This document shows, one piece after another, positions 1-46,655 of a DNA stretch of 46,655 nucleotides. Where the stretch lies: the IMG/VR virus record IMGVR_UViG_2721755711_000007; one strand, written 5' to 3'. A program made the position numbers and the translations under genes. The notes beneath the pieces were generated by a model. It was given only the letters and a program-made list of their open reading frames with translations. It was not told the origin of the DNA and made no database searches. Every line of letters starts with the position of its first letter. Within the stretch, counting starts at the first letter, position 1. This DNA comes from a virus. Taxonomy: Duplodnaviria; Heunggongvirae; Uroviricota; Caudoviricetes.

Positions 1-1164
1 TTACGCCTTCTTTATATCCTCCATAATTCCAGAGTGGGACATATTTGGGACATTATCACCAAAAATGTCGTCTATTTTCCTCGCATGCTCTGTCAAATGA
101 TTAGGCGCAAGGTGAGCATACCTACGAACCATTTCTATGGACTCCCATCCGCCCATTTCCTGAAGCACTGATAATGGGACGCCTGACTGAATCAGCCAGC
201 TTGCCCAGGTGTGTCTGAGGTCATGGAAACGGAAATCTTCAATTCCTGCACGACGACAAGCTGATAGCCATGATGTCTTGCTGTCGATGCGCATCTTCCT
301 GACCGCAGGCGTTGATGTTCCATCTGCTCGCTTAGCCGCCTTGGTATGTACAAACACCCATTTGTGATGCTTGCCTATTTGATCACGCAACACTTTACAG
401 GCGGTATCGTTCAGCGCCACACCAATGGCGCGGTTTGATTTGCTCTCTTCTGGATTCACCCAGGCAACTCGTCGCTGCATGTCGATTTGTTGCCATTCCA
501 GATTTATGATGTTCGACTTTCTCAGACCAGTTGCCAGCGCAAACTTGACGACAGATTTCAGTGGTTCGGGGCACTCATCAATAAGGCGTTTTGCTTCCTC
601 CTTTTCCAGCCATCTGACTCGCTTGTTTCTGACCGCTGGTATCTTGATGACAGGCGCTTTTTCCAGCCACTTCCAGTCGCGTTCTGCAGCACGGAGAATG
701 GCCTTTATCATGGCAAGATGCTTTGCCTTTGTCTGAGTTGATACTGGCTTTGGTTCATAAACAGGCGGTTCTTTACCTTTCCTGATGGCGGCCTGAACTT
801 TCTGTTTCCATATTTCTTTCGTCTTTCTGTTATGCATTCTGCTTACAGCAGAGTAAATCTTTGCCTCCGAGATATCTTTAAGCCTTATACCCTCAAAATG
901 TTCAAGCCAGAACTCAATCCGGCTTTTATCTGAATCGAGAGATTTTTTATCAGCTTTTTCCTCAAGCCATCTTAGGCAGGCCTCTTCAAAAGTGACATCA
1001 GGTAAATCCCCTAGCTTTTCTACTCGCCAGAGTTCTGCTTTTCGCTTGTCGTGCAACTCCTGAGCTTGCCGCTTGTCCTTTGTGCCAAGAGATTCCTTAA
1101 TTCGTTTCTCGCCCGGGAGCGAATACGAGGCATACCATATTTCATTTCTGCGGAAGAGTGACAT
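1..1164 (-). CDS. intD: Phage tyrosine integrase (DLP12 IntD-like), 387 aa
   Basis: Full ORF on minus strand; C-terminal catalytic region with R...HDLRHTWAS...RRY arrangement typical of tyrosine recombinases; located at prophage edge next to xis. Confidence 0.9.
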
Positions 1165-3803: not shown

Positions 3804-3964
3804 ACCGCCTCCCGTTTATTATTTATCTTCTCAGCCAGCCGCTGTGCTTTCAGTGGATTTCTGATAACAGAAAGGCCGGGAAATACCCAGCCTCGCTTTG
3901 TAACGGAGTAGACGAAAGTGATCGCGCCTACCCGGATATTATCGTGAGGATGCGTCATCGCCAT
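3776..3964 (-). CDS. Hypothetical small phage protein, 62 aa
   Basis: ORF immediately downstream of exo, overlapping neighbours by a few codons as is usual in this operon. Confidence 0.4.
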
Positions 3965-4635
3965 TGCTCCCCAAATACAAAACCAATTTCAGCCAGTGCC
4001 TCGTCCATTTTTTCGATGAACTCCGGCACCATCTCGTCAAAACTCGCCATGTACTTTTCATTCCGCTCAATCACGACATAATGCAGGCCTTCACGCTTCA
4101 TGCGCGGGTCATAGTTGGCAAAGTACCAGGCATCTTTTCGCGTCACCCACATGCTGTACTGCACCTGGGCCATGTAAGCCGATTTTATTGCCTCGAAACC
4201 ACCGAGCCGGAATTTCATGAAATCCCGGGAGGTAAACGGGCATTTCAGTTCAAGGCCGTTGCCGTCACTGCATAAACCATCGGGGGAGCAGGCGGTGCGC
4301 ATACTTTCGTCGCGATAGATGATCGGGGATTCAGTAATATTCACGCCGGAAGTGAATTCAAACAGGGTTCTGGCGTCGTTCTCGTACTGTTTTCCCCAGG
4401 CCAGCGCCTTAGCATTAACTTCCGGAGCCACACCGGTGCAAACCTCAGCCAGCAGGGTGTGGAAGTAGGACATTTTCATGTCAGGCCACTTCTTTCCTGA
4501 GCGGGGCTTTGCTATCACGTTGTGAACTTCTGAAGCGGTGATGACGCCGAGCCGTAATTTGTGCCATGCATCATCCCCCTGTTCGACAGCTCTCACGTCG
4601 ATCCCGGTACGCTGCAGGATAATGTCCGGTATCAT
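3955..4635 (-). CDS. exo: Lambda exonuclease (Red alpha), 226 aa
   Basis: Translation near-identical to lambda Exo as I recall it ([36 protein letters not shown]...). Confidence 0.95.
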
Positions 4636-7690: not shown

Positions 7691-8230
7691 ATGCAACCAC
7701 TTACATACCAACAGACTAGCGGATTTAGCCCGACTGCGGTGATAAATCGTTCTCAAACAAAACAGGTGCCAGGCCACGAAAAAATCCGTGATGCCGTCCG
7801 CGCCTGGTCGGCTGTAGATAATCAGGATGTCGTTGCCACACTCATTGTGAATGAGTATCGGGAGCAGGGCGGCGGCACCATCGATTTCCCTGATGATGTC
7901 AGCCGTGCACGCCAGAAGCTGTTCCGCTTCCTCGATAACAAATTCGATTCTGAAAAATACCGAAATAACGTGCGTGAACTGACCCCGGCAATTCTGGCGG
8001 TACTACCGCTGGAATATCGCGGTTACCTGGTTGAGCAGGATAGCTTCATGGCTAGGTTGGCTGAAATGGAAAAGGAACTCAGTGAGGCAAAACAGGCTGT
8101 CATTCTCAACGCACCACGCCACCAGAAACTGAAGGAAATTAGTGAAGGTATTGTGTCGATGTTTCGTGTGGACCCAGATCTGGCTGGTCCATTGATGGCG
8201 ATGGTTACTACCATGCTGGGGGCGATATGA
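7691..8230 (+). CDS. YdaT/CII-like regulatory protein, 179 aa
   Basis: Occupies cII position; similar in motif pattern to Rac YdaT as I recall it; AAGGAG ribosome-binding site. Confidence 0.6.
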   Translation: MQPLTYQQTSGFSPTAVINRSQTKQVPGHEKIRDAVRAWSAVDNQDVVATLIVNEYREQGGGTIDFPDDVSRARQKLFRFLDNKFDSEKYRNNVRELTPAILAVLPLEYRGYLVEQDSFMARLAEMEKELSEAKQAVILNAPRHQKLKEISEGIVSMFRVDPDLAGPLMAMVTTMLGAI

Positions 8231-10897: not shown

Positions 10898-12424
10898 ATG
10901 AAAAAAGCCATAGCATATATGCGATTTTCATCACCAGGTCAGATGTCTGGCGACTCATTAAACCGACAGAGAAGACTTATTGCTGAATGGTTAAAGGTAA
11001 ATAGTGATTATTATCTTGATACCATAACATATGAAGATTTAGGATTAAGTGCATTCAAAGGAAAGCATGCACAATCAGGAGCTTTTTCGGAATTTTTAGA
11101 TGCTATAGAGCATGGTTATATATTGCCAGGAACTACATTGTTAGTTGAAAGTCTGGACAGACTTTCAAGAGAAAAAGTCGGTGAAGCGATTGAACGTCTG
11201 AAATTGATTTTGAATCACGGTATTGATGTTATAACTCTTTGCGACAATACAGTCTATAATATTGACTCTTTGAATGAGCCATATTCATTAATAAAAGCCA
11301 TACTTATAGCACAAAGGGCAAATGAAGAAAGCGAGATAAAGTCAAGTCGGGTTAAATTATCATGGAAGAAAAAACGGCAGGATGCACTGGAATCAGGTAC
11401 GATTATGACGGCGTCTTGTCCGAGATGGCTCTCCTTAGATGACAAAAGAACGGCTTTTGTTCCAGACCCCGACAGGGTGAAAACTATTGAGCTAATTTTT
11501 AAACTCAGGATGGAAAGGCGCTCATTGAATGCAATAGCCAAGTATTTAAATGATCATGCTGTAAAGAATTTCTCAGGAAAAGAAAGTGCATGGGGACCTT
11601 CTGTAATTGAAAAATTATTAGCGAATAAAGCTCTGATAGGTATATGCGTACCTTCATATCGTGCAAGAGGGAAAGGGATAAGTGAAATCGCTGGCTATTA
11701 TCCCAGAGTCATATCAGATGATTTGTTTTACGCTGTACAGGAAATTCGGTTGGCACCTTTTGGTATTAGCAATAGTAGCAAGAATCCTATGCTAATAAAT
11801 CTACTTCGAACAGTTATGAAGTGTGAGGCTTGTGGTAATACCATGATTGTTCATGCGGTATCTGGAAGTTTGCATGGCTATTATGTTTGTCCGATGAGAA
11901 GATTACATCGATGTGACAGGCCATCAATAAAAAGAGATTTGGTTGATTATAATATCATTAATGAATTGCTTTTTAATTGTAGCAAAATTCAACCAGTTGA
12001 AAACAAGAAAGATGCTAATGAAACTTTAGAGTTAAAAATTATTGAGCTTCAGATGAAAATTAATAATTTAATCGTTGCATTGTCTGTCGCGCCTGAAGTT
12101 ACCGCTATAGCAGAGAAAATAAGACTATTAGATAAGGAATTACGAAGGGCTTCGGTATCATTGAAAACTTTGAAGAGTAAAGGTGTAAATTCATTCAGTG
12201 ATTTTTATGCTATTGACTTAACCAGTAAAAATGGACGAGAGTTATGCCGTACACTTGCCTATAAAACATTCGAAAAAATCATAATTAATACGGATAATAA
12301 AACCTGTGATATCTATTTTATGAATGGCATTGTTTTTAAACACTATCCTTTAATGAAAGTAATATCCGCCCAGCAGGCGATAAGTGCTCTCAAATATATG
12401 GTTGATGGTGAGATTTATTTCTAA
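10898..12424 (+). CDS. ybcK: Large serine recombinase-family protein (YbcK-like), 508 aa
   Basis: N-terminal resolvase catalytic motifs (YMRFSSPGQ with Ser, LDRLSR), recombinase domain and Cys-rich zinc-ribbon (CEACG...CPMRRLHRC). Confidence 0.85.
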   Translation: MKKAIAYMRFSSPGQMSGDSLNRQRRLIAEWLKVNSDYYLDTITYEDLGLSAFKGKHAQSGAFSEFLDAIEHGYILPGTTLLVESLDRLSREKVGEAIERLKLILNHGIDVITLCDNTVYNIDSLNEPYSLIKAILIAQRANEESEIKSSRVKLSWKKKRQDALESGTIMTASCPRWLSLDDKRTAFVPDPDRVKTIELIFKLRMERRSLNAIAKYLNDHAVKNFSGKESAWGPSVIEKLLANKALIGICVPSYRARGKGISEIAGYYPRVISDDLFYAVQEIRLAPFGISNSSKNPMLINLLRTVMKCEACGNTMIVHAVSGSLHGYYVCPMRRLHRCDRPSIKRDLVDYNIINELLFNCSKIQPVENKKDANETLELKIIELQMKINNLIVALSVAPEVTAIAEKIRLLDKELRRASVSLKTLKSKGVNSFSDFYAIDLTSKNGRELCRTLAYKTFEKIIINTDNKTCDIYFMNGIVFKHYPLMKVISAQQAISALKYMVDGEIYF

Positions 12425-12888: not shown

Positions 12889-13440
12889 ATGAAAACACTT
12901 ATCGTTTCAACTGTATTGGCATTCATAACATTTTCTGCGCAGGCTGCAGCATTTCAGGTCACTAGTAATGAAATAAAAACAGGAGAGCAACTTACAACGT
13001 CTCATGTCTTTTCTGGATTTGGGTGTGAAGGTGGTAATACATCGCCCTCATTAACCTGGTCTGGTGTTCCTGAAGGTACCAAAAGCTTTGCCGTAACTGT
13101 ATATGATCCAGATGCACCTACAGGCAGTGGTTGGTGGCATTGGACTGTTGTTAATATTCCAGCAACAGTAACATATTTGCCCGTTGATGCAGGGAGACGT
13201 GATGGAACAAAACTGCCGACTGGTGCTGTTCAAGGCCGAAATGATTTTGGCTATGCTGGGTTTGGTGGCGCATGTCCTCCTAAAGGAGATAAACCACATC
13301 ATTACCAGTTTAAAGTATGGGCTCTAAAAACTGAAAAGATTCCTGTAGATTCTAACTCCAGCGGAGCGTTAGTTGGTTATATGCTTAATGCTAATAAAAT
13401 CGCAACCGCTGAGATAACACCAGTTTATGAGATAAAGTAG
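12889..13440 (+). CDS. ybcL: Periplasmic PEBP/RKIP-family protein (YbcL-like) with signal peptide, 183 aa
   Basis: N-terminal signal peptide MKTLIVSTVLAFITFSAQA; PEBP-type motifs (DPDAPT...WxHW, HHY). Confidence 0.85.
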   Translation: MKTLIVSTVLAFITFSAQAAAFQVTSNEIKTGEQLTTSHVFSGFGCEGGNTSPSLTWSGVPEGTKSFAVTVYDPDAPTGSGWWHWTVVNIPATVTYLPVDAGRRDGTKLPTGAVQGRNDFGYAGFGGACPPKGDKPHHYQFKVWALKTEKIPVDSNSSGALVGYMLNANKIATAEITPVYEIK

Positions 13441-13449
13441 GGTGAGAGT

Positions 13450-14247
13450 ATGCTGGCAAGAGGTAAGACTAACTTAAAGATCGAAGAAATACGGATGCAT
13501 AAACATCATGAGATTCATAGGGTTAAGCCTCTTATGCCAGCTTTGTGTCGTATCCGTCAGGGAAAGAAAGTTATCAATTGGGAGACGCATACTTTAACTG
13601 TTGATAATAATCAAATAATATTATTTCCTTGTGGTTATGAATTTTATATTGAGAATTATCCTGAAGCAGGGCTTTATCTTGCAGAAATGCTTTACTTACC
13701 CATTGATTTAATTGAGAGTTTCCAAAAACTTTATACGGTAACTGATCAAATACGTAACAAAACAAGTTTCTTTTTACCTCAGAATCCTGAGTTAATATAT
13801 TGTTGGGAGCAACTAAAAACATCTGTTTCCCGAGGCTTCTCAACTAAAATTCAGGAGCACTTAGCAATGGGCGTTCTACTTTCGTTAGGAGTGAATCATG
13901 TTAATCATTTACTTTTATCATATAGTAAACAATCATTGATAAGTCGTTGTTATAACCTGCTGCTATCCGAACCCGGCACAAAATGGACAGCAAACAAGGT
14001 TGCTCGATATCTCTACATTTCTGTTTCTACATTACATCGCCGTCTAGCAAGCGAGGGGGTAAGTTTCCAAAGTATACTGGACGATGTGAGGTTAAATAAT
14101 GCGTTGTCTGCTATACAAACGACGGTAAAACCTATAAGCGAGATTGCCAGAGAAAATGGTTATAAGTGTCCTTCTCGTTTTACTGAAAGATTTCATAATC
14201 GTTTTAATATAACACCAAGAGAGATAAGAAAAGCTTCCAGAGAGTAA
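13450..14247 (+). CDS. ybcM: AraC-family transcriptional regulator (YbcM-like), 265 aa
   Basis: C-terminal AraC-type HTH region; 10 nt downstream of ybcL. Confidence 0.8.
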
Positions 14248-16523: not shown

Positions 16524-17606
16524 TTAGAACTGGTAAACCATACCTACAGCAACGATATCATCGGTAGCAACGCCAGATGCTTTCGTGAAATCGCTCTTAT
16601 CAATCAGGTTGATTTTGTAATCAACAAAAGTGGACATATTTTTGTTGAAGTAATAGGTTGCACCTACATCAATATATTCAACCAGGTCCTGATCACCCCA
16701 CGCACCCAAGTCTTTTCCTTTAGATTGCAGGTAAGCAACGGACGGACGCAGACCGAAGTCGAACTGATATTGTGCAACTACTTCGAAGTTTTGTGCTTTG
16801 TTGGCAATATGGTTATTACCAAAAACAGTCATGTTCTGGGTTTCAGAATAGGTGGTAGCCAGATAGATGTTGTTCGCATCATATTTCAGACCAGCTGCCC
16901 ATACTTCAGCATTTTGACCAGATGCATTCAGGCTGTTGTTACCGTAGATAACCTGATTATTAGTGCGGTCAGATTTAGCATAGGTTGCACCTACACCGAA
17001 TCCTTCATACTCATAAGTAGTGGAGAAACCGAAACCATCACCATTAGCTTCAGTTACGTCAGTGCGGTCATTTTTACCCTGATACTGAGCAGCAAAGTTC
17101 AGACCATCAACCAGACCAAAGAAGTCGTTGTTACGATAAGTTGCAACACCAGTGGTGCGACCAGTCATGAACACATCTGTTTGGGTCCAGGTATCGCCAC
17201 CGAATTCTGGCAGAACGTCAGTCCACGCACCGATGTCATATGCTACACCGTAGTTACGGCCGTAATCGATTGAGCCGTAGTCCCCGAATTTCAGGCCTGC
17301 AAATGCAAGACGGGTTTTGTCTTTGGAGGAGCCTTGAGATTCAGCGCGGTTGCCTTTGAATTCATATTCCCACTGACCGAAACCAGTCAGTTGATCGTTG
17401 ATTTGGGTTTCACCTTTGAAGCCAAGACGGGCATAAGTAGTATCACCATCATCTGCATCATTAGAGGAGAAGTAGTGCTTGGCATTAACTTTCCCATATA
17501 GATCCAGCTTGTTACTGTCTTTATTATAAATTTCAGCTGCCTGAGCAGACATCGCCATCAGTACTGATGCAGCTACAGCAGAAATTGCCACTGTTAATTT
17601 TTTCAT
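16524..17606 (-). CDS. nmpC: Outer-membrane general porin NmpC (OmpC/OmpF family), 360 aa, intact
   Basis: Signal peptide [23 protein letters not shown]; beta-barrel porin ending in the C-terminal MVYQF signature. Confidence 0.95.
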
Positions 17607-35964: not shown

Positions 35965-39910
<3,946 letters not shown>

Positions 39911-39918
39911 CCACTACA

Positions 39919-40723
39919 GCAGGACGGACGCCTTTATATTGCGGGTATCGGTGCCGGTATTGAGAACACCCCTGACGGCATGCAGAGTCAGGTGCTGCTG
40001 GCAGCAGACAGGATTGCGATGATTAATCCTGCGAATGGCAACACAAAGCCGATGTTTGTTGGTCAGGGCGATCAGATATTCATGAATGAAGTGTTCCTGA
40101 AACGCCTGACGGCCCCCACCATTACCAGCGGCGGTAATCCTCCGGCATTTTCCCTGACATCAGACGGGAGACTGACGGCGAAAAATGCGGATATCAGTGG
40201 CAGTGTGAATGCGAACTCAGGAACGCTCAACAATGTCACGATTAACCAGAACTGTACGATTAAGGGCATGCTGGAGGCGACCCAGGTCAGAGGAGATTTC
40301 GTTAAAGCTGTATCAAAAGCCTTCCCGAAAAAAGTCGGTACGTGGGGTAACACGGAAACACCAAACGGTACGGTTACAGTCACCATCAGCGATGATCATA
40401 ACTTTGACCGCCAGATTATTATTCCGCCCATTATTTTTAACGGTATAGCGTATGACGATCCGGGGAGCGGAAATAACCCAGGAGGCACGCGATACACGGG
40501 TTATGGTTTTGAAGTTCGCAAAAACGGCGTATTAATCGCATCCAGAGAAACTAAAGGGGCCATTCCCGGTAGTTACAGTGCAGTTATTGATATGCCGAGT
40601 GGCAGGGGAAGCGTCACTCTGGAGTTTAAGATTTTCCAGAAAGGCAATCAGGGGGCAGGCAATATCACCGACTGTACGGTGATTGTGACCAAAAAAGCCG
40701 CTTCCGGCATCAGTATTCGTTGA
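39919..40723 (+). pseudogene. J: Tail tip/central fibre protein J, 3' part (C-terminal receptor-binding region)
   Basis: In frame with the 5' part once the IS is removed; ...AGIGAGIENTPDGMQSQVLLAADRIAMINPANGNTKPMFVGQ... parallels lambda J; extreme C-terminal region diverges from lambda. Confidence 0.85.
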
Positions 40724-41393: not shown

Positions 41394-41419
41394 TTAGCCA
41401 GGTAACACAGTGTTATGAC

Positions 41420-41448
41420 AGCCCGCCGGTTCAGGCGGGCTTTTTTGT
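41420..41448 (+). terminator. Rho-independent terminator after lom
   Basis: AGCCCGCC-ggttca-GGCGGGCT hairpin followed by TTTTTTG. Confidence 0.65.
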
Positions 41449-41457
41449 GGGGTGAAT

Positions 41458-44400
41458 ATGGCAGTAAAGATTTCAGGTGTACTGAAAGACGGCACAGGAA
41501 AACCGGTACAGAACTGCACAATCCAGCTGAAAGCAAAACGTAACAGCACCACGGTGGTGGTGAACACGCTGGCCTCAGAAAATCCGGATGAAGCCGGGCG
41601 TTACAGCATGGACGTTGAGTACGGGCAGTACAGCGTTATTCTGTTGGTGGAGGGATTCCCGCCGTCACATGCCGGGACCATCACCGTGTATGAAGATTCC
41701 CGACCCGGTACGCTGAATGATTTTCTCGGTGCCATGACGGAGGATGATGCCCGTCCTGAGGCACTGCGCCGTTTTGAACTGATGGTGGAAGAGGTGGCGC
41801 GTAACGCGTCCGCGGTGGCACAGAACACGGCAGCCGCGAAGAAGTCAGCCAGCGATGCCAGCACATCAGCCCGTGAGGCGGCAACCCATGCGACTGATGC
41901 TGCAGATTCAGCACGTGCAGCCAGCACGTCAGCCGGACAGGCCGCTTCGTCGGCTCAGTCAGCGTCTTCCAGCGCAGGAACGGCATCAACAAAGGCCACT
42001 GAAGCCTCAAAAAGTGCTGCCGCTGCAGAGTCCTCAAAAAGCGTGGCAGCTACCAGTGCCGGTGCGGCGAAAACGTCAGAAACGAATGCCGCAGCGTCAG
42101 AACAATCAGCCGCCACTTCTGCATCCACCGCGACCACGAAAGCGTCAGAAGCTGCCACCTCAGCCCGGGATGCGGCGGCCTCAAAAGAGGCAGCGAAATC
42201 ATCAGAAACGAACGCATCCTTGAGCGCCAGTAGCGCAGCTTCCTCGGCAACGGCGGCAGGAAATTCCGCGAAGGCGGCAAAAACGTCCGAGACGAACGCC
42301 AGGTCTTCTGAGACGGCAGCGGGACAGAGCGCCTCAGCTGCGGCAGGCTCAAAAACAGCGGCTGCGTCGTCTGCCAGTGCCGCGTCAACAAGTGCCGGGC
42401 AGGCCTCAGCCAGTGCCACCGCCGCCGGAAAATCGGCAGAAAGCGCCGCATCATCCGCTTCAACAGCCACAACGAAGGCTGGCGAAGCCACTGAGCAGGC
42501 CACGGCAGCAGCGAGGTCAGCTTCCGCAGCGAAGACATCCGAAACGAACGCGAAAGCGTCGGAAACCCGTGCAGAATCCTCAAAAACGGCAGCGGCATCG
42601 TCCGCCAGTTCGGCGGCGTCATCGGCATCATCGGCGTCTGCTTCAAAAGATGAGGCGACCAGACAGGCGTCAGCAGCGAAGGGCAGCGCCACGACGGCAT
42701 CCACGAAGGCGACAGAGGCTGCTGGTAGTGCGAAGGCAGCAGCTCAGAGCAAAAGTACGGCGGAATCTGCAGCAACGCGCGCTGAGACAGCGGCAAAACG
42801 GGCAGAGGATATTGCATCCGCCGTGGCGCTTGAGGATGCGAGCACGACGAAAAAGGGGATAGTACAGCTCAGTAGTGCGACTAACAGCACTTCCGAGTCA
42901 CTGGCGGCAACACCAAAAGCCGTTAAGGCCGCGTATGACCTGGCTAGCGGGAAATACACCGCACAGGATGCAACGACAGCACAGAAAGGGATAATCCAGC
43001 TAAGTAGCGCGACCAACAGCACGTCTGAAACGCTGGCGGCAACGCCAAAGGCAGTAAAAGCAGCCAATGACAATGCTGAGAAACGTCTGCAGAAAGATCA
43101 GAACGGTGCGGATATCCCTGGCAAAGACACCTTTACGAAAAATATTGGTGCCTGCCGTGCCTTCGGTGGGTCAGTAAGCACAACAACAGGAAACTGGACG
43201 ACTGCACAGTTTATCGAGTGGCTGGATTCTCAGGGAGCATTTAACCATCCATACTGGATGTGCAAGGGTTCCTGGTCTTATGGCAATAATAAAATCATTA
43301 CTGATACTGGCTGCGGTAATATTCATCTCGCCGGAGCTGTCATTGAAGTAATGGGGATAAAGTCAGCGATGACGATCCGCATTACCACTCCGACCACATC
43401 CAGCGGTGGCGGAACAACCAACGCCCAGTTTACCTATATTAATCACGGAACAGATTATTCACCTGGCTGGCGAAGGGACTATAACTCCAGAAATAAGCCA
43501 ACGGCATCAGAGATCGGGGCGCTACCGTCAGGTGGAACAGCAGTATCATCAGTTAATCTGGCTTCAAAAGGTCGGGTAGCCGCGCTGACAGACAATACGC
43601 AGGGGGCAGCAGGTCTTGAGTTATACGAGGTGTATAACAACGGATATCCAACAACGTATGGAAATATCATTCACCTGAAAGGGATGACAGCCGTTGGCGA
43701 AGGTGAGTTACTCATCGGCTGGAGTGGTACAAGCGGTGCTCATGCTCCGGCATTTATTCGTTCACGACGGGATACGACCGACGCAAACTGGTCGCCGTGG
43801 GCGCAGCTTTACACCTCGGCTCATCCTCCTGCAGAGTTTTATCCAGTCGGTGCACCAATCCCGTGGCCATCAGATACCGTTCCGTCTGGTTATGTCCTGA
43901 TGCAGGGGCAGACTTTTGACAAATCTGCATACCCGAAACTTGCAGCCGCTTATCCGTCAGGCGTGATCCCTGATATGCGTGGCTGGACGATTAAGGGCAA
44001 ACCTGCCAGTGGTCGGGCCGTATTGTCTCAGGAACAGGACGGCATTAAATCGCACACCCACAGCGCCAGCGCATCCAGTACGGATTTGGGGACGAAAACC
44101 ACATCGTCGTTTGATTACGGCACTAAATCCACGAATAACATCGGGGCGCATACGCACAGTGTGAGCGGTACAGCCGCAAGTGCCGGAAACCATACTCATA
44201 GTGTCACAGGCGCATCAGCAGTCAGCCAGTGGTCACAAAATGGGTCAGTACATAAGGTAGTGTCTGCGGCCAGTGTGAATACAAGTGCTGCAGGAGCGCA
44301 CACTCATAGTGTCAGCGGCACAGCTGCATCTGCAGGTGCTCACGCACATACTGTCGGTATTGGTGCTCATACGCACTCGGTTGCGATTGGCTCACATGGA

Positions 44401-44484
44401 CACACCATCACCGTTAACGCTGCTGGTAACGCGGAAAACACCGTCAAAAACATCGCATTTAACTATATTGTGAGGCTTGCATGA
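41458..44484 (+). CDS. stf: Side tail fibre protein Stf, 1008 aa
   Basis: [26 protein letters not shown]... and C-terminal ...[31 protein letters not shown] match lambda Stf; Ala/Ser-rich low-complexity middle. Confidence 0.9.
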
Positions 44485-45383
44485 TTACGCTCATTCTTTC
44501 TGCACCAGTAACCGAAATGGCTGAAGCATTTAAGCGGGTATTTGCAAATGCAGATAATGTGAATATTGTCGGAAAGCCATTTGAAACAATCAGAGAATTT
44601 GACTGCATGGTAAGTGCGGCAAATAGTTTCGGCCTGATGGATGGCGGTGTTGATGCCGCCATTACCACATTCTTCGGTTCTCAGCTACAGGCCCGCGTTC
44701 AGAATCATATTCTTCGTGAATATCTCGGCGAGCAGCCTGTAGGTTCTGCATTTGTTATTGAAACGGGGCATAATTATCACCCCTGGCTGGTACATGCGCC
44801 AACAATGCGTGTTCCGTTGACAATTGACGGAACAGACGCTGTATATAACGCAACTTGGGCAGCTCTACTTGCTATCTTTCAGCACAATAAAAACGCAACG
44901 ACAGACAGGAAAATAAAGACGGTGGTATTCCCTGCAATGGGAGCCGGATGTGGTCAGGTGCCGTTTGAAAGCGTTGCCCGGCAGATGAAGCAGGCATGGG
45001 ATAACTTTAATAAAAAAACAGAATCAATTAACTGGGAATACGCACAATCCCGCCAGTCGGCAGTATTTGGCACATATGCATACTGTCCGGGTAATTCTGT
45101 TTGCCGTTATGCGGATACTAAATATATTGGATGCGGCGATTATCGGACGTATTGCTCACGTTCCGGGCAGGTCTGTATTAACCCTGAACATCAGGCTGAT
45201 GATGTACTGATACAACATCAGGCTAATAACCGGTTTCGCCCTGGTTCGCATATACACCGGATTAATCCAGAAAATCCTGTAGGTAATGTCATCTCTGGCG
45301 CACATAGCCACGGAAGTAGCATCGTTATTGGTGCTCACACCCATACGCTCAATAAACAATATTCTGTCTCTGATATTAAGTAG
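44481..45383 (+). CDS. Macro-domain (ADP-ribose-binding/processing fold) protein with Cys-rich, His-X-His tail-fibre-like C-terminus, 300 aa; inserted between stf and tfa
   Basis: Motifs [37 protein letters not shown] and [14 protein letters not shown] fit the macro-domain signature pattern; ATG overlaps stf stop (ATGA); lambda has no gene here. Confidence 0.75.
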
Positions 45384-45391
45384 AGGTGAAC

Positions 45392-45967
45392 ATGGATTTC
45401 AGAATGAGTGAACAACCACGGACCATAACAATTTATAATCTGCTGGCCGGAACTAATGAATTTATTGGTGAAGGTGACGCATACATTCCGCCTCATACAG
45501 GTCTGCCAGCAAACAGTACCGATATTGCACCGCCAGATATTCCGGCTGGTTTCGTGGCTGTTTTCAACAGTGATGAGTCATCGTGGCATCTCGTTGAAGA
45601 TCATCGGGGTAAAACGGTTTATGACGTGGCTTCCGGCGACGCGTTATTTATTTCTGAACTCGGCTCATTACCGGAAAATGTCACCTGGTTATCCCCGGAA
45701 GGGGAGTTTCAGAAGTGGAACGGCACAGCCTGGGTGAAGGATACGGAAGCAGAAAAACTGTTCCGGATCCGGGAGGCGGAAGAAACAAAAAACAGCCTGA
45801 TGCAGGTAGCCAGTGAGCATATAGCGCCGCTTCAGGATGCTGTGGATCTGGAGATCGCAACGGAGAAAGAAACCTTGTTGCTGGAAGCCTGGAAAAAGTA
45901 TCGGGTGTTGCTGAACCGTGTTGATACATCAACTGCACCGGATATTGAATGGCCAGCCCTACCGTAG
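45392..45967 (+). CDS. tfa: Tail fibre assembly protein Tfa, 191 aa
   Basis: [54 protein letters not shown]... matches lambda Tfa; GAGG ribosome-binding site 6 nt upstream. Confidence 0.9.
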
Positions 45968-46064
45968 GGTAAGATATATAAATTCTATAATTAGAAGTAT
46001 CTTTCCATTTAAGGCTAGGAAGGGGGGCTTGGAAAACGTAAGGAATCTCACACCGAGATTATTT

Positions 46065-46655
46065 TTATATATCAGGTGTCTGATTTTTTGCTTTAGCTCT
46101 TAAAATGGTTTGCCGCGAGGTTTTGAATTCTTGGGCAATGTCACTTATATTTATACCTGACTTAATTTGCTCTAGTACCCTCTGTATTTGTTCATCATTT
46201 AACACAGGTGGGCGACCAAATCGCTTTCCTGCGCCCCGTGCTCTTAATATCCCTGAATGAGTACGCTCAAGTAAAAGGTCTCGCTCAAATTCAGCGACTG
46301 CTGAAATTACTTGCATCATCATTTTTCCAGGTGGACTGGTCAGGTCAACGCCCCCCAATGCTAAGCAATGCACTTTGATACCTGCTTTGGTCAGTTGTTC
46401 CACCGTTTTACTGATATCCATTGGATTACAACCGAGGCGATCCAGTTTTGTGACAATCAATGCATCACCTCTTTTCAGTCGATCAAGCAACTGGTTAAAA
46501 CCAGGACGCTCACTGGTTGCTGCTGAGCCGCTAATTTGTTCTTCAATTATTTGCTGAGATTTGATGTTAAAACCTGCACTTTCGATTTCCCGACGTTGAT
46601 TTTTGGTTGTCTTTTCCAGAGTTGATACCCGACAGTAAGCATAAATTCGAGACAT
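46065..46655 (-). CDS. pin: PinR/PinQ-like serine recombinase (resolvase/invertase family), 196 aa; start codon is the last three bases of the window
   Basis: [29 protein letters not shown]... with catalytic Ser in YCRVST and C-terminal HTH; typical position downstream of tfa in lambdoid prophages. Confidence 0.85.

Follow-up and report, generated by a model that had tools for sequence, protein, structure and literature searches.

What is a macro-domain gene doing between the side tail fibre gene and the fibre assembly gene of a lambdoid prophage? The question is raised by IMG/VR record IMGVR_UViG_2721755711_000007, a 46,655-nucleotide stretch of DNA (hereafter the window) that holds a complete lambdoid prophage, from an integrase gene (1-1164, minus strand) to a serine recombinase gene (46065-46655, minus strand). 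Between stf, the side tail fibre gene, and tfa, the tail fibre assembly gene, lies an open reading frame (ORF) of 300 codons plus a TAG stop (44481-45383, plus strand), here called the macro gene. Here, we show using profile and structure searches, structure prediction, genome surveys and substitution-rate analysis that this gene is a conserved accessory cassette inserted precisely at the stf/tfa boundary, and we tentatively favour the reading that its product is a hydrolase of 1''-substituted ADP-ribose, made late and serving in counter-defence.

The macro core comprises residues 1-195 (44481-45065, plus strand). Pfam Macro (PF01661) matches residues 44-169 over its complete profile (positions 1-118) at E 5.9e-19, scoring 68.6 bits where the cutoff is 22, and the motifs that an earlier note on this DNA had read as macro-domain hallmarks are indeed present. 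An AlphaFold2 model based on a 77-sequence alignment gives residues 1-190 a predicted local distance difference test score (pLDDT) above 94 and has the three-layer alpha/beta/alpha architecture of the macro fold. In macro domains, loop 1 of the ADP-ribose-binding site has the motif Nx6GG[VLI]D and loop 2 is glycine-rich; both loops are found here, as N48...G55-G56-V57-D58 and G154-A-G-C-G158 (codons for N48 at 44622-44624, D58 at 44652-44654, H105 at 44793-44795 and the glycine loop G154-G158 at 44940-44954). Among 77 diverse relatives, N48 and D58 are kept in 76, G158 and P107 in all 77, and H105 in 57, with Tyr in its place in 12.

Which kind of macro domain is it? Both by structure and by profile, the closest solved relative of the core is the Macro2-type Appr-1''-phosphatase Ymx7 of yeast. 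Foldseek ranks it first in the PDB (1njr, an ADP-ribose-1''-monophosphatase, E 1e-10), and the family profile finds 1njr at E 1.5e-16, with aligned segments that include VSPGNSYGYLGGGFDKAL, and YIIHVPT with WLVHAPT. From this profile alignment, Ymx7 residues N80, D90 and H145 correspond to N48, D58 and H105. Ymx7, the sole studied Macro2-type member, converts Appr-1''-p (ADP-ribose-1''-phosphate) to ADP-ribose and has no activity in removing mono-ADP-ribose from modified targets (de-MARylating activity; PMC6397177). The families first put forward as nearest, MacroD, YmdB and the antitoxin DarG, are more distant: the MacroD/YmdB equivalogs of NCBIfam reach 51.9 bits at best against cutoffs of 200-315, the DarG model NF048014 gives 12.7 bits against a cutoff of 250, and the DarG model of PADLOC gives 14.4 bits (E 0.005) over 39 residues. 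A neighbouring DarT gene or DarT-binding domain was not found, the flanks being always a fibre gene and tfa. Two phage macrodomain anti-defence proteins, the anti-DarT2 protein AdfM, established by experiment (PMC13309987), and Tk.4 of phage T4 (bioRxiv 10.1101/2025.11.20.689424), are DarG-like; the profile scores and the weak structural rank of Tk.4 rule out that the window protein belongs to this DarG/AdfM group. The Ymx7-type class and the low DarG scores together favour a small 1''-substituted ADP-ribose over DarT-type DNA marks as the probable substrate.

The insertion itself can be read directly from the sequence. The stf gene (41452-44484, plus strand; Pfam phage_tail_N, Phage_fiber_2, Collar and Phage_fiber) is listed from a GTG at 41452, with the lambda-like start MAVKISG at an ATG at 41458, and the last 50 residues of its product are collinear with lambda Stf. 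The macro ATG (44481-44483) overlaps the stf stop codon TGA (44482-44484) as gcATGAtt, and its TAG ends at 45383, 8 nucleotides (nt) ahead of the tfa ATG at 45392; the gene order, the coupling and this spacing are all as originally described. Lambda can be aligned without a break as far as ...GTGAGGCTTGCAT, and the match resumes at the tfa ATG, with about 911 nt inserted at the stf/tfa boundary; this collinearity on both sides indicates a precise insertion. A Shine-Dalgarno-like GTGAGG within the 3' end of stf (44470-44475, plus strand), recognised from the sequence and the lambda alignment, lies upstream of tfa in lambda and upstream of the macro ORF here, while a second, cassette-borne one, GAGGTG (45383-45388, plus strand), lies 3 nt before the tfa ATG and is kept in the E. 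coli-type copies. The macro ORF would thus take over the ribosome-binding site from which tfa is translated in lambda, and supply a replacement for tfa, which is of the lambda type (45392-45967, plus strand; Pfam Caudo_TAP, 150.5 bits).

Promoter-like and terminator-like sites are no commoner in this DNA than in shuffled sequence, and none flanks the macro ORF. Since no promoter, terminator or invertase site borders it, the gene is presumably expressed together with the late fibre genes. For the same lack of promoter or terminator signal above chance, an autonomous moron is ruled out, and the suggestion of a moron, one of three roles offered by the earlier note, is weak. The lower GC content seen at first sight is borne out: 45.5% in the macro gene, compared with 55.6% in stf, 49.1% in tfa and 51.1% over the whole window. 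A long part of stf is itself unusual in composition; the region for Stf residues ~110-470 (window 41750-42900) is Ala/Ser/Thr-rich and of low complexity, with GC up to 64% and a strong AT skew, and yields long spurious ORFs in other frames.

Does the serine recombinase beside tfa have a part in this arrangement? It is of the invertase type (46065-46655, minus strand; Pfam Resolvase and HTH_7), and no link between it and the macro gene emerged: within 41400-46655 we found neither inverted-repeat crossover sites nor an alternative set of fibre and tfa genes. The involvement of an invertible segment was therefore rejected, despite this neighbour. The window ends at the start codon of the recombinase gene, and a partner crossover site could lie outside it.

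The macro gene stands outside the canonical lambda gene set, as had been pointed out, and the alignment confirms that lambda itself lacks it; nonetheless it is no singularity of this prophage but a widespread cassette. It is present in 128 of 5,426 complete E. coli genomes, sequence type 131 (ST131) included, with 22 copies on plasmids, and more than 1,700 homologous protein clusters derive from Escherichia, Salmonella, Citrobacter, Enterobacter and Erwinia. The same gene order (fibre, macro, tfa) and 4-nt overlap are seen again in lambdoid prophages, among them Gifsy-1 (where the record already notes a Macro domain), in the P2-like phages Chuche and SEN4/5, in a 97-kb P1-like and a 110-kb SSU5-like phage-plasmid, in a Mu-like Enterobacter prophage and in an Erwinia myovirus-type prophage. 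The cassette is present in at least five phage backbones. In a survey of 80 IMG/VR loci, 78 of them with upstream flank and 76 with room downstream, the start of the macro ORF overlaps, by 4 nt, the end of a fibre ORF with the terminal residues N[YF]IVRLA in 77 of 78, and a lambda-type Tfa comes next in 75 of 76. The fibres upstream are of at least 24 distal types, unrelated beyond their last ~50 residues.

The reverse comparison shows how little the fibre depends on the cassette. Uninterrupted fibre-tfa junctions occur at 7,774 places in 3,848 of the 5,426 E. coli genomes; the cassette occupies fewer than 2% of such junctions, the empty form being about 50 times commoner. The macro gene is therefore an accessory that fibre assembly can do without. 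Homology arms are provided by the conserved fibre end and by the start of tfa, so that the cassette could spread across backbones without any functional link to the fibre.

Beyond the enterobacterial cassette, the macro core family comprises 2,360 clusters at 50% identity, mostly standalone proteins of about 200 residues. The closest relative without the C-terminal tail described below (P0121, 63% identity) lies between ParB/methyltransferase genes and terminase, and homologs in Rhizobium phages and jumbo phages lie among small non-structural genes; given these contexts, the 'tail protein' labels on these Rhizobium-phage and jumbo-phage homologs look annotation-propagated. In BFVD, the structural relatives are jumbo-phage and giant-virus proteins that lack characterisation, and cellular relatives (P0122, P0124, P0125) are on contigs shorter than 2 kb. 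One 463-residue relative (P0018), with 96% identity in the macro region, has ParM/StbA-like Pfam domains at its N-terminus; it comes from a single 8.4-kb contig, and the fusion may be due to a frameshift or to faulty assembly. In Microcystis phage Mae-JY35, a macro homolog of 37% identity (3935-4492) lies among co-directional genes, two genes upstream of a structural protein with a peptidase-S74 (fibre/spike chaperone) domain, and this proximity of a macro gene to tail-fibre genes may have arisen independently.

What, then, is the C-terminal part of the protein? The last 105 residues (196-300) contain five cysteines and three G[AS]HxH units, with His at 11.7% compared with 2.5% in the remainder. 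They divide into a Cys module (residues 196-240; 45066-45200, plus strand), predicted to be a small beta unit, and a His-rich tail (residues 241-300; 45201-45380, plus strand) with the units H257/H259, H275/H277 and H286/H288. Across the enterobacterial family, C202, C208, C225 and C232 are conserved together with the motif YIGxGDYRTYC...CI..HQ..DD, C218 being variable; the four cysteines are invariant in two family alignments (A1 and A4). After this module come 1-5 GxHxH units, and some Salmonella members have the unit G-A-H-x-H-x-h-x-h with a period of 9, the form also seen in the Stf repeats. The monomer models leave residues 245-300 disordered and give the Cys module a pLDDT of 58-79; modelled alone, the C-terminal module has a pLDDT of 46. 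Five IMG/VR copies (L051, L095, L097, L080 and L093) are shortened to 169-253 residues and lack part or all of the Cys/HxH tail, while still lying at the fibre/tfa junction.

The earlier note had seen in this region a likeness to the Stf tip and had proposed a chimera made by recombination within a tail-fibre tip module. The likeness holds for the HxH repeats, which alone match Stf in a single BLASTP comparison (E 0.002), and not for the Cys module and the rest. The chimera finds no backing: at the DNA level, the 3' end of the macro gene matches stf over 16-17 nt at best, and Pfam Phage_fiber (PF03335), a 14-residue fibre repeat profile, has no match in the window protein's C-terminus even at E 10 and reaches 10.5 bits at best in the family, short of its cutoff of 20. 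For the Cys module, neither the PDB nor PHROGs outside phrog_2613 contains a homolog, and a search of 50,697 phage genomes returned its own family and one decayed remnant, with no real fibre gene among the matches. That remnant, in Salmonella phage SEN34 (L007, 4001-4183), matches the Cys module alone at 59-61% identity and has no intact ORF; it follows fibre, chaperone and acyltransferase genes, precedes the integrase and looks like the relic of a lost cassette. With DNA similarity of at most 17 nt and a Cys module without fibre homolog, a recent stf-derived chimera is ruled out.

Could the gene nevertheless be without function, a fragment or chimera in decay that recombination at the fibre locus carries along passively? 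The shortened copies and the SEN34 remnant show that decay occurs, and the flanks are efficient recombination handles. Against this, the ratio of non-synonymous to synonymous substitution rates (dN/dS) is 0.08-0.22 in the macro core, even where synonymous divergence (dS) exceeds 2, and 0.14-0.21 in the Cys module, that is, strong purifying selection across saturated synonymous divergence; there are more than 1,700 intact homologs, and the active site is invariant. The His-rich tail evolves faster, with dN/dS of 0.23-0.96 and indels in repeat number. Selection on the Cys module and the tail, together with the lack of a fibre DNA match, means that the tail is real, selected and fast-evolving rather than debris of recent recombination. 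Passive carriage thus seems very remote, and the substitution rates and the conservation essentially refute it already.

How might a conserved Macro2-type enzyme made with the tail fibre serve the phage? Counter-defence, also raised in the earlier note, is a reasonable leading idea. Phage macro domains have been proposed to counter mostly soluble ADP-ribose derivatives, and some lie among morphogenesis genes (PMC9503650). Active-site conservation, the affinity to Macro2 and this published view together make a late hydrolase of 1''-substituted ADP-ribose the best-supported function, which we put forward as a working proposal short of firm belief. Precedents are the macrodomain anti-DarT2 proteins of the AdfM group and the side tail fibre that, with its chaperone, sets sensitivity to type II Thoeris (see below). 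In line with such a role, other phage members of the core family are encoded in accessory regions of a non-structural kind. The predicted enzyme, apparently catalytically competent, would bind ADP-ribose and remove a group at the 1'' position of the distal ribose. It would be made late in infection only, without a promoter of its own, coupled in translation to Stf upstream and Tfa downstream, as an accessory not needed for building the fibre. Its flanks, the last ~50 codons of lambda-type fibres and the start of lambda-type tfa, are among the most conserved and most exchanged sequences of enterobacterial phages, and homologous recombination in them would move the cassette among lambdoid, P2-like, Mu-like, P1-like and SSU5-like genomes. 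The enzyme would break down an immune product that derives from ADP-ribose and arises late in infection; a soluble 1''-linked ADP-ribose is more probable here than ADP-ribosylated DNA, and candidate substrates are Thoeris-type gcADPR or His-ADPR and Appr-1''-p-like compounds. The Cys4 module and GxHxH repeats may form a clade-specific metal-binding or oligomerisation appendage, possibly folded by, or docked on, Tfa or fibre intermediates.

A more specific form of this idea follows from Pseudomonas N4-like phages, in which the side tail fibre and its chaperone set sensitivity to type II Thoeris, a system that signals through His-ADPR (bioRxiv 10.64898/2026.06.04.730250). By analogy, the macro protein might be a 'trigger-linked antidote', an enzyme co-translated with the sensed fibre-chaperone pair, docked by its GxHxH tail, that destroys His-ADPR or gcADPR locally; we regard this as distinctly unlikely, if attractive. 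Our literature search returned no paper on this macro family, on a fibre-linked macro gene or on a macro-domain anti-Thoeris enzyme, and a 2022 survey of viral NAD and ADP-ribose systems, which places macro domains in ~1% of siphoviruses, leaves tail fibres unmentioned (PMC9503650).

Several points weigh against a counter-defence hydrolase. The Ymx7 residues that guide the active-site assignment are reportedly proposed catalytic residues, and Pfam Macro_2 (PF14519) scores 23.4 bits, below its cutoff of 27, in a partial match to profile positions 81-159 of 290; the missed cutoff makes the window protein a Ymx7-like relative rather than a curated PF14519 member. Most anti-defence genes act early or have their products packaged, so late, fibre-coupled expression is unusual for one. 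No ADP-ribosyltransferase, TIR or Sir2 partner was found among the prophage ORFs scanned in the window. Finally, the strict link between the Cys/HxH tail and the tail-fibre locus is unexplained by a purely cytosolic role: the tail occurs in 14 of the 77 representatives, all enterobacterial and fibre-linked.

This exclusive association is the main fact that the counter-defence model leaves unexplained, and it keeps a fibre- or Tfa-associated role alive. The GxHxH tail might be a metal-bound trimeric stalk made with the help of Tfa, placing the protein on or near the side tail fibre in the virion, where the displayed macro domains would bind or modify a ribose- or phosphate-containing surface ligand, as a tip adhesin or a receptor-modifying enzyme. 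The gene is always between fibre and chaperone and coupled on both sides, the tail is confined to fibre-locus copies while the closest tail-less relative is located elsewhere, and its fast evolution with repeat indels is like that of receptor-binding tips; its repeat unit in some members matches the form of the Stf repeats, and disorder in a monomer model is expected of an obligate oligomer. However, the fibre end and Tfa work without the macro gene in lambda and at ~98% of junctions, the distal fibre regions found with the gene are of at least 24 unrelated kinds, there is no evident virion attachment domain (the N-terminus is strand 1 of the macro fold), the Pfam fibre-repeat model does not recognise the tail, and natural copies without the tail exist. 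We know of no ADP-ribose-like ligand on the enterobacterial surface, which also counts against such a role. On balance we consider a structural accessory of the fibre unlikely, though it deserves serious attention.

Could the gene instead serve the lysogen? It might reverse ADP-ribosylation by toxins, or defend the host by destroying the ADP-ribose-pyrophosphate-type intermediates with which superinfecting phages rebuild NAD+. An intact gene, 100% identical in many genomes although the prophage is probably defective, and a GC content below that of its neighbours, typical of acquired cargo, speak for this. Yet it lies within the late operon with no promoter-like signal above chance, it is also found in freely replicating phages and phage-plasmids, and the weak PADLOC match reflects a shared fold, so that we hold a benefit to the host to be improbable.

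The state of the prophage can be seen at J, the gene of the tail tip, which is split into an N-terminal part (35965-38676) and a C-terminal part (39980-40723) by an IS3-family element (orfA 38697-39044, orfB 39164-39910). This split indicates that the prophage is probably defective, though stf, the macro gene and tfa are intact. In E. coli C5 an equal arrangement of an IS3-split J is annotated, adjoining appY and ompT. Other cargo in the window (10898-12424, 12889-14247 and 16524-17606) resembles the DLP12 set and comprises a large serine recombinase (Resolvase, Recombinase and Zn_ribbon_recom), a PEBP-family protein, an AraC-type regulator and an nmpC-like porin gene (minus strand).

The closest characterised relative being an Appr-1''-phosphatase, the ancestral role of Ymx7 must also be considered, namely metabolic clean-up of ADP-ribose-1''-phosphate or its 1'',2''-cyclic phosphate arising in infected cells when KptA/Tpt1-type transferases remove 2'-phosphates left by RNA repair. 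Two relatives (P0140, P0202) have the macro core fused to rhodanese and dual-specificity phosphatase domains, which echoes the association of macro domains with rhodanese-phosphatase proteins described previously (PMC9503650) and speaks for such a role; further relatives are fused to WD40, RRM or Hpt. Clean-up leaves both the fibre-locus position and the C-terminal tail without a reason, however, and no RNA ligase, kinase-phosphatase or Tpt1 gene is nearby, in the window or in the other contexts examined. We judge it less probable still than a benefit to the lysogen.

The gene and its macro annotation are already in databases, the E. coli copies being auto-annotated as 'macro domain-containing protein'. 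That phage macro-domain proteins can be counter-defence enzymes has been demonstrated only recently, with AdfM, and the two examples so far are DarG-like; the window protein comes from a different macro class, Macro2/Ymx7-like, and carries a previously undescribed Cys4 and GxHxH appendage. The cassette is fixed within the module that enterobacterial phages exchange most often, in model and clinical backgrounds that include Gifsy-1 of S. Typhimurium LT2, E. coli ST131 and the P1- and SSU5-like phage-plasmids. If the protein does degrade ADP-ribose-derived signals or marks, it would add a new enzyme class to the anti-defence repertoire, and fibre swapping could move immune-evasion genes together with host range, which bears on engineered fibres for therapeutic phages. 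A trigger-linked antidote would be the first anti-Thoeris enzyme to degrade the signal with a macro domain, and the first case of a counter-defence gene hard-wired to its trigger. Were the protein displayed on the fibre instead, a macro domain would for the first time be seen at work outside the cell.

How does the cassette compare with known systems? Its true orthologs are Gifsy-1 STM2588.1n, the NCBI 'macro domain-containing protein' and PHROG 2613 (70% identity). These orthologs, known by annotation only, have the fibre-macro-tfa order and the Cys module as in the window, while Salmonella forms are shorter (269-274 residues), with HxH repeats that are fewer or different. Morons and cargo at tail-fibre loci, such as lom and bor of lambda or Z/fun of P2, are likewise lower-GC, dispensable additions to a conserved late region, but the macro gene lacks a promoter and terminator of its own, lies between fibre and chaperone rather than after tfa, and is coupled on both sides. 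With the iron-binding HxH needle of the T4 gp37 type and the lambda Stf repeats described by PF03335, the macro tail has in common the G-x-H-x-H motif, a similar spacing and a position near the C-terminus. It differs in having 1-5 repeats that do not reach PF03335, in sharing no DNA homology with stf and in being preceded by a Cys module that fibres lack; its metal binding and trimer formation are predicted.

With Ymx7 (YMR087W, 1njr) the core shares ~21% identity. Insertions of Ymx7 are absent from the phage protein, which adds the Cys4 and GxHxH tail, is viral, is encoded in a tail-fibre operon and has an activity that is predicted. The AdfM group (PhiKZ gp104, PhiPA3 gp108 and T4 Tk.4) differs in class: its members are DarG2-like macro domains that belong to the ALC1/TARG class and have a catalytic Lys, and they are expressed early or directed to the phage nucleus, without a link to the fibre. 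The structural match of the window protein to a Tk.4 homolog is weak (rank 23), and its relative in PhiPA3 is gp271, another gene than gp108. Counter-defence by removal of ADP-ribose has been demonstrated for the AdfM group and is predicted for the window protein, which, like them, is a phage-encoded standalone macro-domain protein.

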